Shown piece by piece: positions 13,363 to 44,973 of a stretch of 64,000 bases of DNA. The position numbers and the translations under genes were made by a program. The stretch's first letter is position 1. Each line of letters opens with the position of its first letter. The stretch comes from Octopus vulgaris (Eukaryota): assembly GCA_951406725.2 (NCBI GenBank), contig OX597817.1, positions 11,594,001 through 11,658,000 of the forward strand, given 5' to 3'. The notes below the pieces were generated by a model. The model was given only the letters and a program-made list of their open reading frames with translations. It made no database searches and was not told where the DNA came from.

Positions 13363-14068
13363 GTATATTTTTTTACTTGTACTCTAACATTACCAGTTTG
13401 CAGGCTAAAGATGATCATGAACTGATGCTGATGTTTCTGATTTTTATGATAGTGATGATGAAAATAGTGGATGTGCTGCTGTTGTTGTTGGAGATGGTTG
13501 TGATGGTGCAGGGGGTGGCTGCGGAGTTTCATGCGTGACATTTATCAAACTATGTTATAAGTTACAAATTTGCACTTTACACAGTAGAAAATGTACTTAT
13601 ATTTTTCTTGGACGTTTCCACCGAAGTCTATTATGAATTATTCTGTAATCCATAAAGTTTTCGCATTTTCGAAATCTTACTATTAGCCAGATTTTGAAAA
13701 TATTGTTTAATCACCCGACACTTCAGTATGTTTGTGTGTGTGTGAGGGTGGGGTGGGGGGCTATAGAAGTATCTAGAACAATCACAATGATGTCCTCTAC
13801 AATATAAAAACAATATTTGCAATTTATAATTTACCATGCGCAAAACACTAGGTTCATGAGTGATATACGTGGCTTAACTGCCTTCCATTTTCCTAACCAC
13901 AGAGGAATTTTTCAACCTAATATTTACATTCTATTAATAATTTATTTGTCTATTATATATAGCTTTATATGTACTTCCCAAACCAATTTCAAAACAACAA
14001 TAATTCCACGCTCTCTTAAAAGTTTATGAATTTTTATGTCAAATGTGTATATATATATATATATATAT

Positions 14069-14255
14069 AGGGAGAGTTTACGAAAAAAACAAAAGACGAA
14101 GAGAGGTGGTGTACAAAACAAACAGATGTATTAGTATAACGCTCAGGAATAGAAAAAGTCTTTTACGTTTCGAGCCTACGCTCTTCTACAGAAAGGGACA
14201 CAGAAAACAAGGAGAGAAAAAAATGTGTGTAGTGGCTAACGATCTATCATGGCGA
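14069..14255 (-). mobile_element. About 190-bp hammerhead-bearing element (PLE pLTR or retrozyme-like), same family as 34898-35108
   Basis: Reverse complement of 34898-35108; contains CTTT-CTGTAGA-AGAGCGTAGGCTC-GAAA-CG-TA-AAAG at 14158-14199; 3' end abuts (TA)n. Confidence 0.65.
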
Positions 14256-20274: not shown

Positions 20275-22382
20275 ACGACTAAAGAATATTGTGACTGATT
20301 GTTATGTTGTTGATAATCGACCTAAAGCATATAACTTTCGAAACCACACAAGTAGTCATTTTTTAAGTTCTCTGGTTGCTTTTTTTTGCGGGATTGGGGG
20401 AAGAAAATTGTAGCTTTATTTTATATCTAAATGTTTCTGTATGTAAATTATTCCATAAAATGTCGTTTCGACAACTATGTGTCCAACGAAAAGTTGTGTT
20501 ATGATTTTCTACATATATCTAGAAAATACGTTCCGGAGGGTCATATGTAGTTGCTCGATCTGCTAGAAATAGTTGCGTAATACTTCTCAAATTTCACTTG
20601 CACTGACTGAAAGAAGAACGGATAGAGTTGATAATCTTGATTTATCATATCAAATAATAATTTTTTTTTTTTTTTTAAAAAGCAGTATTTTCATAGTTGG
20701 AAATCCTTTGGTCATTCATAGGCCAAAACGGTTGACCGTGGGACGAATAACAGTAAATTTATTGTCTGTAAATGGAAGTTAGCGCTATTGCTCATGACGT
20801 CACTACTAAGCCTTCATTGAATACTCCTGATAAAAGACATACTAATCGTGACTATCTCAGCTTTTTTCCAAACATTGTATGAAGGATTGGTAAGGTGGGA
20901 AGGGAGTGAAACTTGACTGCTATTTCTAGTTTATAACGACACCTCGTTGAAATTCCATCGCTGACTTTTACTTTCATGCGATTAAAGAGATTAGTGGCTG
21001 AACTACCATCTGTTTTCTGATCATATCTAAAACCCGTTACTTTCAAATGATATAGTTATATTTCCCTCACTCCTCCCAACTATGTTTCGTAAATTAGTGT
21101 TTGAGCCTTTTGTTGTGCTTAATTATAATAAATCTATGGTTAACTTTCAGAGATAACTGGGTACTACCGGGATGATTTGCCTAAATACTACATGAAAATA
21201 AAGACAGTATGAGATTAAATACACAAAATATTACTATTCATCTAATATATGCTAATAAAGACCGTTATCTAAATATTAGACAGCACAAATCGGTGAAATA
21301 GATCCTTCTCATTACTATAGATGATATCATCTGAATCCCTGAAACAAATAAGCTCTCCGTAGGATCTCTGAATATCGAAATAAAATATACGTATATTCTG
21401 TATAATTGAGTATCAAGTTCTTATTTGAAGTATGGTTTCCTAGATCTTTACTAGGTATATTCTGTATAAACTATAGATGATACAGAGGTATCAAGGTGTG
21501 TGTATATATATATAGCAGTGGGAGAGAGATATTGAAAGTGGTAAAGTTGCTGGCGCTTTACTTGCACTTAAAAAAGAATATGTTAGGGTATGTTAGACAA
21601 AACATCTCAAATACTGATCCCTTTTAAAACAGTTGAAGGAAGTGTTGCGGCCCCACACATACCTTCCTATTCTCCCCACTCTCTCGCTCGCTCTCTCTTA
21701 TACACAAACACACGCAAATATACGCACGGTGCGTGTACACAACACATCCACACATTTACATATTTAAGAGACAAGATAAAGGTTGTTTGGTGAGTTTGTG
21801 ACGATGTAACGAATGCGTCACAGAGGACGCACACCTACAAACACACCACTCTACAAACATTCTGGAATACAGAAGGGACGGTCGAGTGGGAAGGGGGGGG
21901 TCATTTTATGTCTAATTTCAGTTGTTCAAGACTAACAACAAAAACGGAAAAACAAAAAGGAACGGAAAGGGTGGGTTAGCAGCAGCGGTGATTGTGGTGA
22001 TAGGTAGAGGAGGTAGGAGTAGTGTCACTTGTGGAGGTAATTGAGGTAGTAAGTAAACGAAGGAGGGGAGGGAGGATGAAGGAGCAGGGGGGGAGGGGTG
22101 GCAATTTGGGTGGGGGAATGAGGTAGATGAGGGCAGAGTTTGTAACACTGTTGGTGGTGATTGAAGATGTTGGGAATGGTGAAGCTGGAATGGTGAGGGT
22201 GAGATGATGGGGTAGGTGGACTAGAGTTGGTTCGGTTGAAATAATGGCGTAGTGATGTTGGTAGTAGAAACTTGAGGGTTCTATGCGTGGAAGTAGGGTC
22301 TTATATGAATTTTGATGATCAGGAAAAATGGATGGTGGCGGAGGAGTTAAGTAGTGGAGGTCATGGCAACGACATGTTTTCT

Positions 22383-22817
22383 TATTGTCGTTGTTGTGTA
22401 GTCTTAAATCCTATAGATCTATGATTCAAAGACGTTCCACTCATGACTATCTCGTCTTTCTGTTTATCTATTGTCGTTGTTGTGTAGTCTTAAATCCTAT
22501 AGATCTATGATTCAAAGACGTTCCACTCATGACTATCTCGTCTTTCTGTTTATCTATTGTCGTTGTTGTGTAGTCTTAAATCCTATAGATCTATGATTCA
22601 AAGACGTTCCACTCATGACTATCTCGTCTTTCTGTTTATCTATTGTCGTTGTTGTGTAGTCTTAAATCCTATAGATCTATGATTCAAAGACGTTCCACTC
22701 ATGACTATCTCGTCTTTCTGTTTATCTATTGTCGTTGTTGTGTAGTCTTAAATCCTATAGATCTATGATTCAAAGACGTTCCACTCATGACTATCTCGCT
22801 TTTCTGTTTATCTATTG
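22383..22817. repeat. Tandem array of an 86-bp unit x5, near-perfect
   Basis: Unit tattgtcgttgttgtgtagtcttaaatcctatagatctatgattcaaagacgttccactcatgactatctcgtctttctgtttatc starts at 22383, 22469, 22555, 22641 and 22727. Confidence 0.97.
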
Positions 22818-34851: not shown

Positions 34852-34897
34852 ATATATATATATTTATATTTATACACACACACACACACTATATATA

Positions 34898-35108
34898 TCG
34901 CCATGTTGATTCGTTAGCTACTGCACGCATTTTTTTTCTCTCCTTCTTTCTGTGTTTTTCTCTCTCTGTGTATCTTTCTGTTGAAGAGCGTAGGCTCGAA
35001 ACGTTAAAGACTTGTTTTATTTATATTTCCTGAGCGCCATACTAATACAATTGTTCGTTTGTTTTCCACCTGCCTTCGTCTTTTGTTTATTTTCATAAAG
35101 CTTCCCGT
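34898..35108 (+). mobile_element. About 210-bp hammerhead-bearing element (PLE pLTR or retrozyme-like)
   Basis: TCTTT-CTGTTGA-AGAGCGTAGGCTC-GAAA-CG-TT-AAAGA at 34973-35010; flanked by (TA)n; second copy at 14069-14255. Confidence 0.65.
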
Positions 35109-35139
<31 letters not shown>

Positions 35140-42666: not shown

Positions 42667-42733
<67 letters not shown>

Positions 42734-42738
<5 letters not shown>

Positions 42739-43327
42739 AAATATTGAATTTCTAAATATCTCGTAGAGACCTGTACGGTGGTGGGGCGATAGAATGGTTG
42801 TATACTGTCAATCTAACAAGAACGTGACAGTAGGGGGTACACCACCGTTGTATAGCCCTAGGAGGCATCGAACGCCTCCTGACAGCCTCCTAGGGCTATA
42901 CAACGGTGGTGTACCCCCTACTGTCACGTTCTTGTTAGATTGACAGTATACAACCATTCTATCGCCCCACCACCGTACAGGTCTCTACGAGAGATTTAGA
43001 AATTCAATATTTCTTATTTTGATAATCAGTGAATAGACTTCACAGAGTTTACATATGTACAGATACGAAGTCCAGACAAATATCACCAGCCGACCGGTGT
43101 CTGCTACTCTAGGCCGATGAAGGACAATGATCCTGAAACACGGTGTCCCTAGATGCAGTTCTGGCGGTTGGGGGTGTTTGTCTCCCCTTCGTATATGTAT
43201 ATAAGGACACAGGGAAAAAATGTGTCGAAGCTGTCAGGAGGTGTTCGATGCCTCCTAGGGCTATACAACGGTGGTGTACCCCCTACTGTCACGTTCTTGT
43301 TAGATTGACAGTATACAACAATTCTAT
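42734..43327 (+). mobile_element. Retrozyme or PLE-pLTR-like element: 365-bp unit with 78-bp terminal redundancy, one HHR and a 133-bp inverted arm; inserted in (TA)n
   Basis: Inverted arms 42734-42866 and 42885-43017 (1 mismatch); direct repeats 42885-42962 and 43250-43327 (1 mismatch); HHR at 43101-43158. Confidence 0.8.
43101..43158 (+). ncRNA. Type-I hammerhead ribozyme
   Basis: CTGC-tac-TCTAGG-CCGATGA-AGGA-caatga-TCCT-GAAA-CACGGTG-TC-CCTAGA-t-GCAG: 6-bp stem I plus internal loop and extension, 4-bp stem II, short quasi-palindromic stem III, GUC site (cleavage after 43147); core has U4C. Confidence 0.8.
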
Positions 43328-43384
43328 ATATATATATATTTACACAAATTGTTAGCATGTATAAAAACTTAGATATATTTCGAC

Positions 43385-43789: not shown

Positions 43790-44973
43790 TGAGGGTGAGC
43801 TGAAAGGTTCAGAGGCTGACTATGAAGGAGTGACACTAGAACTGAAATTTTGCATGCTTTAATTTCAACACTGACATCTGACTGTTCAAAGAGGACTTCA
43901 AAATAACTAGTAGTGACTCCTTCTGAAAATGGACAAAATTTGGCATCGATATGTTATCAAGTACCAGCAGAAAACGACATTCATGGTGACATGGTTGCTA
44001 CATTAGGGGCTGATGCTCCAGCTTTATCAACAATGCATAAGTGGGAAGCTGAATTTAGGCGAGAAGGGATAATCCTAGATGACCCAAGGTCTGAACGTTC
44101 TGCACCTGTCACCACCGGGGAAAACATTAATCGTTTTCACAACTTGATGAATGACAGGCGATTAACTAGAAATCAAATAGCCAATGCTCTCATAATCGTG
44201 AGAGTGTTGGAAATATTCTGCACATTGAAATTTTTATAACGAATGTTTCTGCTCGGTGGTGAACACACCTTCTAACACCTGATCAAAAGCGCACCAAATT
44301 GATCACGGGGAAATCTGACATTAATTGAGATAGTCCCAGTTGCTTTCCTTGAAATATTCTAAGTCGGAAAGAGTGTTGGGTTCATTACTTTGTGTCAGAG
44401 ACAAAGTGACAGTCCATGCAGTGGAAACACCCCTTCTCACCTGGTCCAAAGTACGCCAATGTCGTTTCATCTGCAGGGATTGTGACGGCCTCAAAGTTTG
44501 GGGATACAAAAAACATTGTGTTTATTGACTATCTTCAAAAGGTTCACCCTAAGACAACCTGCTAAGGTAGTTACGAAAGGCTGTCAAGAGCAAGCGCTCA
44601 GAAAAAACTTAGATATCTTGATGAAACAGATGTCTTGTTTCATCGGGACAATACTCTACTACACAAGTCCTTACTTTCAATGGCTGTAATGCGTGACTAT
44701 AGATTTGAACTGGTTGATCGGATTCCCTATTTTCTTGATTTGGCCTCATGTAACTATCATCTGTTCCCCAACATGAAAAAACACTTGGCTGGAAACCAGT
44801 GTCGCAGTGGTGATGACATCGTGTCTGCTGTTGATGAATTTCACCAATGAGATCCAAGTACTGTAACACCGATGAAAGAAGTGTGTGGACCACCAGGAGG
44901 ACTATGTTGAAATATAAACCTCATTCGATGACATTCCATGAGAATATCTTGGTCAGCCTATCAGCCGACCCCG
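43790..44973 (+). mobile_element. Near full-length decayed mariner with TIRs and TA flanks
   Basis: TA|tgagggtgagctgaaaggttcagaggctgac ... gtcagcctatcagccgaccccg|TA; peptides DMVATLGADAPALSTMHKWEAEFRR..DDPRS, DRRLT, FHRDN, PYFLDLASCNYHLFPNMKKHLAG. Confidence 0.9.

Follow-up and report, generated by a model that had tools for sequence, protein, structure and literature searches.

The closest described relatives of the element analysed here are the non-LTR retrozymes of animals, which form circular RNAs (PMC7229834), and the Penelope-like elements (PLEs). Li et al. (10.64898/2026.07.22.740005) argue that vertebrate non-LTR retrozymes represent PLE derivatives that are non-autonomous, no mollusc being among the groups which they list. 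So far, mobilisation of animal retrozymes by PLEs has been argued from co-occurrence and from pseudo-LTR (pLTR) homology. For the PLEs, Craig et al. (10.1101/2021.04.23.441226) describe a two-armed insertion as their pattern. In the work of Frangieh et al. (PMC11167929), the protein of a PLE acts on both strands of AT-rich DNA, which it cuts and extends, and reverse transcription (RT) starts at two internal sites of an AC-rich stem-loop; the stretch between these sites is the tail, which was traced to the two starts on uncleaved RNA. For the anole PLE in vitro, uncleaved RNA was the main substrate and the ribozyme was dispensable (PMC11167929). The circle origin of PLE tandem and inverted structures and the role of the hammerhead in the PLE cycle are both treated as open in the literature consulted.

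Within a 64,000-nucleotide stretch of Octopus vulgaris DNA (assembly GCA_951406725.2, contig OX597817.1, positions 11,594,001 to 11,658,000), called the window here, we observed a locus made of 1.2 tandem units of a 365-bp repeat (GC 44.9%) and a head-to-head inverted arm, inside a (TA)n target microsatellite that is long on the left (42669-42736, 34 copies, 100%) and short on the right (43325-43340). With unit position 1 set at window position 42963, the plus-strand arm is composed of a 5'-truncated upstream partial unit (unit 288-365, 42885-42962), which forms a pLTR-like direct repeat, and of the full non-coding unit 1-365 (42963-43327, 45% GC). The first-pass annotation had described a 78-bp repeat, B, at 42885-42962 and 43250-43327 with a period of 365, and this was confirmed with 1 mismatch. 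On the minus strand, the inverted arm comprises unit 265-365, 5'-truncated (42789-42889; 3/101 mismatches with the right copy, 0/78 with the first B), and ends in a 55-nt tail, unit 1-55 (42734-42788; 1/55 mismatches). The two arms overlap by 5 nt at the head-to-head junction (42885-42889). The first reading had divided the plus strand into blocks B-C-D-A-B and had taken the unbroken A-B-C run of the inverted arm as the sign of a template spanning the unit junction. The run is present (42734-42889, minus strand), but it corresponds to a standard PLE tail. What it demonstrates is that copying began internally, on a template exceeding B-C-D-A in length, and no circle as such. The youth deduced from one mismatch per repeat pair holds for the family, but the actual mismatches per pair range from 0 to 3. 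The statement that the unit has no meaningful ORF stands, the longest Met-started frame counting 38 codons in a tandem reading of the unit. Elsewhere in the window, 34897-35112 and 14064-14255 are 3' ends belonging to a GC-rich family of PLEs, with 99.5% and 75% identity to locus L258, and 22375-22817 is an 86-bp tandem repeat (5.2 copies, 98% identical). Broken frames at 43900-44850 resemble, by eye, a decayed mariner transposase; two pieces of this region gave no Pfam match.

The genome (2.80 Gb, 227 contigs) contains over a thousand dispersed copies of this 365-bp repeat family. A 443-bp query returned 1,898 first-look candidates, of which 40 were scored, the best copy per locus being 93-97% identical. 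A 23-nt unit-end motif had 2,060 exact matches in the genome, counting the window family together with its sister, to which it is about 77% identical, against 0 for the reversed control; the repeat is therefore present far beyond chance. A more distant sister family has a 360-bp unit and 2,990 candidates (for example L308:3937-4490 on G000:C13, and L326-L350). In place of LTRs, the copies have tandem units that are truncated and vary at the 5' end. Overall, the tandem and permuted copies found in the genome support the initial proposal of a young, dispersed, non-coding and hammerhead-bearing retrozyme-like family.

We mapped the arms in 142 loci, representing 150 insertions once five duplicate loci and one locus without alignable arm had been dropped; in these counts one insertion (L193/L225) appears twice and a few segmental duplicates remain. 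The outer 3' ends occupy two sites 55 nt apart, E1 at unit 365 and E2 at unit 52-56, and the inner 5' ends are scattered. At the window locus, the direct arm ends at E1 (43327) and the outer end of the inverted tail is E2. The arms stand head to head in 78 of the 150 insertions, and E1 and E2 lie on opposite arms in 59 of these 78, with E2 found twice in 2, E1 twice in 0 and an unclassified end in 17, so that 59 of the 61 classifiable two-armed insertions follow a rule of one end per arm. In a position-ordered subsample along contig C1 (64 loci and 70 insertions, an intact end motif being required), 34/70 insertions were two-armed and all of the 24 classifiable ones (24/24) obeyed this rule. 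The distant 360-bp sister obeys it too, with ends 59 nt apart (25 loci, one duplicate among them). About half of the insertions are single-armed, the arms are unequal in length, and their median length in the position-ordered sample is 157 nt, only 4/70 exceeding 420 nt. (AT)n borders at least one side of 84 of the 150 insertions. Direct repeats of 9-14 bp (upper bounds on the duplication lengths) flank 17 of the 47 two-armed insertions in which at least one side was clear of (AT)n; of the remaining 30, 19 have no duplication, 9 have one of 5-7 bp and 2 show microsatellite matches. E1 at 42962, an AC-rich site, is enclosed by a predicted 8-bp helix (42904-42911 with 42968-42975, plus strand; 92% of cells paired, no double-sided change), followed by predicted tail hairpins that reach E2 at 43017. 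Overall, the partial tandem, the inverted 5'-truncated arm, the tail at one end and the AT-rich target are those of PLE-mobilised sequences, and the element is very probably non-autonomous and PLE-mobilised. A tRNA-derived Pol III SINE was rejected as its identity: ARAGORN found 0 genes, and in the sister family one base is absent from the B-box-like word located at 43243-43251. Subfamilies at a greater distance lack the T run that follows E2.

The type I hammerhead motif (43101-43158, plus strand) stands at the tip of a predicted long rod (approximately 43052-43203) and has a bulged stem I, a core at 43114-43120, stem II at 43121-43134 followed by GAAA at 43135-43138, a near-palindromic stem/loop III at 43138-43146 and a predicted cut at 43147/43148. 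It had been called well-formed. The anatomy and the GUC site at 43147/43148 are indeed in the sequence, but the motif is no textbook hammerhead: the core sequence is C3-C4-G5 (U4C), a near-palindrome is all that closes stem III, and the check with Rfam models proposed in the first-pass annotation, run at two scales, gave no match for the window hammerhead. Among 106 motifs in 147 loci (the motif, loop III pairing and tree counts omit five non-duplicate loci), the core is C4 in 80, canonical U4 in 17 and other in 9, the GUC triplet is present in 100/106, and the variants of stem III are palindromes or near-palindromes. U4C is reported to lower activity in vitro but to support viroid infectivity (PMC3088659). 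The core of the distant sister shows U3-A8 covariation, U3-A8 being a natural hammerhead variant (PMC3088659; PMC4209133). Across 24 aligned units, a 92-pair structure is paired in 93.8% of cells against 31-48% in slid controls, and 19 pairs show double-sided changes against 9.5 in shuffles, figures obtained from about four subfamilies that are related to one another and whose sequences also served to draw the structure. Compensatory pairs occur in hammerhead stems I and II of these units, and the closing pair of stem II is unpaired in 11/24. Conservation of the hammerhead by covariation is thus supported but not proven. The gacttc/gaagtc hairpin listed earlier is not a conserved pairing, its bases belonging to other conserved helices.

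In the window-subfamily monomer, C3-C4-G5 is predicted to pair with loop III with a probability of 0.99 (mean of 12 motifs), against 0.32 in the U4 subfamily, and the predicted self-pairing of loop III amounts to -9.3 kcal/mol, in a folding model without tertiary contacts. Folded as a circle, the unit reaches z = -5.5 relative to 60 shuffles. From the U4C core and the palindromic stem III together, cleavage is predicted for the dimer alone. Core position 4 and the loop III base facing it are C-G in 78 motifs, U-A in 16 and other in 3, pairing in 94/97; the change maps to a single event on the tree (trait columns included, support 42/76), and the match therefore counts as one event and not as repeated covariation. 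A hammerhead off as a monomer and on as a dimer is our working hypothesis; a point against a hammerhead-released circle is that, of 9 predicted retrozyme dimers from Xenopus, 8 failed to cleave (10.64898/2026.07.22.740005). The window locus has one hammerhead only, so that it cannot itself release a circle, and any 365-nt circle would have to stem from siblings that carry two. Loci with at least two complete hammerheads numbered 8 among the 147 scanned, and L297 and L301 are of this kind too.

We also observed other hammerhead-bearing or tandem elements. An isolated window-family hammerhead with a perfect palindromic stem III lies between unrelated flanks at L104:1526-1596 (G000:C30); the flank pattern occurs once in the genome, and runs X2 and X12 have contigs in which it appears attached to the motif. 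L309:4386-4813 is a head-to-head inverted element with another type I hammerhead motif of canonical core, and L308:1468-3311 is another tandem element, with a period of 594 bp, three units and an inverted arm. Two short inverted elements, L035:196 and L143:2652, carry a C4-core hammerhead with stem III as in the Neptune-type pLTR described below, and are probably ends of another Neptune-like family. A covariance model run over the window and 99 PLE loci matched only two other non-coding hammerhead elements.

The insertion grammar described above is identical to that of autonomous PLEs, as it would be if the copies were solo pLTRs or terminal fragments of an unsampled ordinary autonomous PLE. 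PLE coding pieces are also present somewhere in 11 of 126 loci (tblastn), and at L225 (G000:C1:50310000-50319000, minus strand) the unit tail is gaplessly joined to a truncated RT-GIY-YIG frame, with no TA spacer and a 1-2 nt overlap, the PLE being young and 5'-truncated and the whole being flanked by (TA)n. However, the L225 PLE has a pLTR of its own and 36/36 rows of its other copies carry the native sequence at the junction, which may result from template switching, as a chimera, or from an insertion that came later. The pieces in the 11 loci are neighbouring, unrelated ones, as a shared target would lead one to expect. No RT and GIY-YIG ORF lies between the repeats, as it does in an autonomous EN+ PLE. 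The unit shows no similarity to 48 GIY-YIG loci, to 98 PLE loci (at E<0.5), to 37 PLE-3 loci or to the Neptune-type unit, the best 150 candidates of each protein search having been scored. Every arm longer than one unit (44 insertions, arm >420 nt) continues into the preceding unit and never into an ORF, which designates a non-autonomous element and not a pLTR. The first-pass annotation had named constant attachment to a PLE ORF among the observations that would together overturn it; what we found are long arms that wrap into the unit, and solo pLTRs are very unlikely. A DNA-level origin can be considered extremely improbable. Terminal inverted arms and TA-rich targets resemble those of MITEs, and a foldback or MITE-like element, or a satellite that recombination had spread, could bear an incidental hammerhead-like motif. 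Yet, read along the hammerhead strand, the arms have fixed 3' ends and variable 5' ends, roughly half of the insertions are single-armed, arm lengths are unequal, the copies are dispersed, and the RNA helices covary.

Within PLE mobilisation, the template is likely, though not proven, to be a circular RNA; the same two-site mobilisation could instead use a linear one, either uncleaved read-through of tandem copies or template-jumped linear RNA, with a hammerhead that acts late or merely trims transcripts and a circle that is not needed. Both arms copy one template lineage, as indicated by their low discordance at 69 polymorphic sites (inverted 115/2,455, 4.7%; direct 54/1,483, 3.6%; same-family loci 22%). 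The arms cross the cut site without indels, which counts for a circle, and 1 of 111 family-1 arms starts at unit 186, the cut site. A cleaved linear monomer is accordingly disfavoured as template, since the arms cross that site and the 5' ends are not clustered there; for uncleaved linear RNA, the lack of such a pile-up is a point in favour. The loci with 2-3 hammerheads are possible sources of read-through, and the successive passes at L298 and L301 carry different alleles, which speaks against a circle, as does the use of mainly uncleaved RNA by the anole PLE (PMC11167929). In addition, the autonomous 2,590-bp Neptune-type element also forms 3-unit arrays, so that multimers need not mean a small circle. 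On the other hand, with a median arm of 157 nt, arrays copied linearly would shrink at each generation, whereas arms reach more than 1,000 nt in spite of this median, and no long master array was found among the best 40 of 2,220 candidates with a 2.3-unit query. At L025 two full passes are identical and have a private allele in common; at L013, too, a private allele is common to both full passes. The hammerhead is kept through compensatory changes, core covariation included, and related animal retrozymes are found as circles (PMC7229834). Taken together, we regard a linear template as rather unlikely. Words of the stretch occur in 14 runs guessed to be RNA and contigs of four of these cover it, a result uninformative on transcription, strand, ends or circles.

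Three PLE families with intact frames are present in the genome: one of 781 aa with RT and GIY-YIG, one of up to 1,214 aa with RT, and one of 717 aa with a Cys-rich linker and a 2,590-bp unit. None of these sampled families shares sequence with the repeat unit. From its linker we take the 717-aa PLE to be of the Neptune/Nematis kind; its frame had no match in Pfam. In small samples picked by protein match, the Neptune-type PLE was head to head in 10/19 loci on recount, 8 of them with one end of each kind (9 were used in the test), and the other two families in 1/11 and 0/13 loci. The Neptune-type pLTR also contains a motif resembling a hammerhead, in which the core is C4 and a near-palindrome of 9 nt is present. 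By insertion signature, the Neptune-type PLE fits best and is the most likely partner. PLE-3 had been suggested by the gapless L225 junction and by a 6-bp gap at L021; it was rejected as partner on its own insertions, which have one 3' end and no inverted arm in 13/13 loci, and is kept as a weak lead. Several observations concern the PLEs themselves. L320-L325 contain the very young autonomous Neptune-type PLE, with multi-unit arrays 99-100% identical and long inverted arms within single insertions; this PLE, too, may be copied from a circle, and its stem II includes a 6-bp complement of the hammerhead-like core. At L064:444-5690 a young PLE carries, upstream of the 781-aa RT-GIY-YIG frame, a distinct frame of 479 aa (no Pfam match). 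At L348:2026-3200 a distant-sister arm stands head to head with a Neptune-type PLE that is decayed and 5'-truncated, only a few bases lying between them; this PLE belongs to another family and has about 38% identity to the young one.

Overall, our main reading, to which we give a probability of about 0.6, is that of a non-autonomous retrozyme copied by a PLE RT/GIY-YIG protein, probably from a hammerhead-released circular monomer. A sibling locus with two hammerheads would be transcribed, likely by read-through; the two palindromic stems III would pair as a dimer and cut, and a host ligase would close the 365-nt circle, in which the monomer core is predicted to be inactive through pairing with loop III. 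A PLE protein, most likely Neptune-type, would then nick both AT-rich strands about 10-12 bp apart, and each 3' end would prime internal RT on the same template, one at E1 and the other at E2. The cDNAs would run for variable lengths, sometimes over more than one round, before joining head to head. A bolder version, unlikely as it stands, makes the element a viroid-sized circular RNA parasite that borrows the Neptune-type PLE protein by structure alone, with the hammerhead as a dimer-triggered switch: one circle would be copied from two fixed internal starts at once, one per nicked strand, the pairing of the U4C core with loop III would keep the monomer circle uncut, and the paired palindromic loops III would switch the tandem transcript on. 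If true, such a switch would explain how animal retrozyme circles persist despite their ribozyme.

The kind of element is already known, and the value of the present family lies in testability and not in a new category. PLE mobilisation can be read from the insertions, with one RT start per arm and the same template for both arms in two distant families, which provides a useful footprint. The 365-nt substrate with mapped start sites, the three intact candidate PLE proteins and the natural core variants (U4, C4, U3-A8) form a resource for testing the circle origin of PLE tandem and inverted structures and the role of the hammerhead in the PLE cycle. No cephalopod retrozyme was found in print, although Repbase, Dfam or the supplements of PMC7229834 and 10.64898/2026.07.22.740005 may list the family; the words 'ribozyme' and 'retrozyme' do not occur in the available part of the main text of the octopus repeat annotation PMC13282606.

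Judged from sequence alone, the family has the size, GC content, hammerhead, tandem copies (in the family, not at the window locus) and target-site duplication above 4 bp that define metazoan non-LTR retrozymes. As described in PMC7229834, the latter are likewise non-coding, of about 350-390 nt in the mussel, and below 50% GC; they carry a single type I hammerhead in each unit, occur as tandem copies, have long target duplications and share their genome with PLEs. The axolotl retrozyme has a weak palindromic helix III and cleaves as a dimer (PMC7229834), and helix III is similar here. In contrast to the metazoan retrozymes, the window family forms mostly dispersed, two-armed insertions shorter than one unit instead of long arrays, has a U4C core, and has fixed RT start sites readable from its ends, whereas metazoan retrozymes, according to a review (PMC7761336), lack any motif that would point to a partner. 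Among PLEs, the anole Poseidon PAc also has a partial tandem, an inverted 5'-truncated arm and a tail at one end only (PMC11167929), and EN+ PLEs share the AC-rich stem-loop with two starts, AT-rich or (TA)n targets and a hammerhead in the repeat (PMC11167929; 10.1101/2021.04.23.441226). Unlike these, the window family has no ORF, its tail is 55 nt against 30-40 nt, and its hammerhead is extended, with a bulged stem I, against the minimal pLTR form. The MRC1-like non-autonomous PLEs of Chlamys have 3' sequence in common with their autonomous partner, whereas none was detected for the window family, and most Chlamys PLE families are reported without a hammerhead, whereas this family has one (10.1101/2021.04.23.441226). 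Finally, the sibling loci have the two consecutive units and complete hammerhead by which Li et al. call a retrozyme 'active'. Unlike the Xenopus elements, the window family has no homology to any sampled pLTR; the evidence of Li et al. is co-occurrence and pLTR homology in Xenopus (10.64898/2026.07.22.740005), whereas here it is the structure of the insertions.
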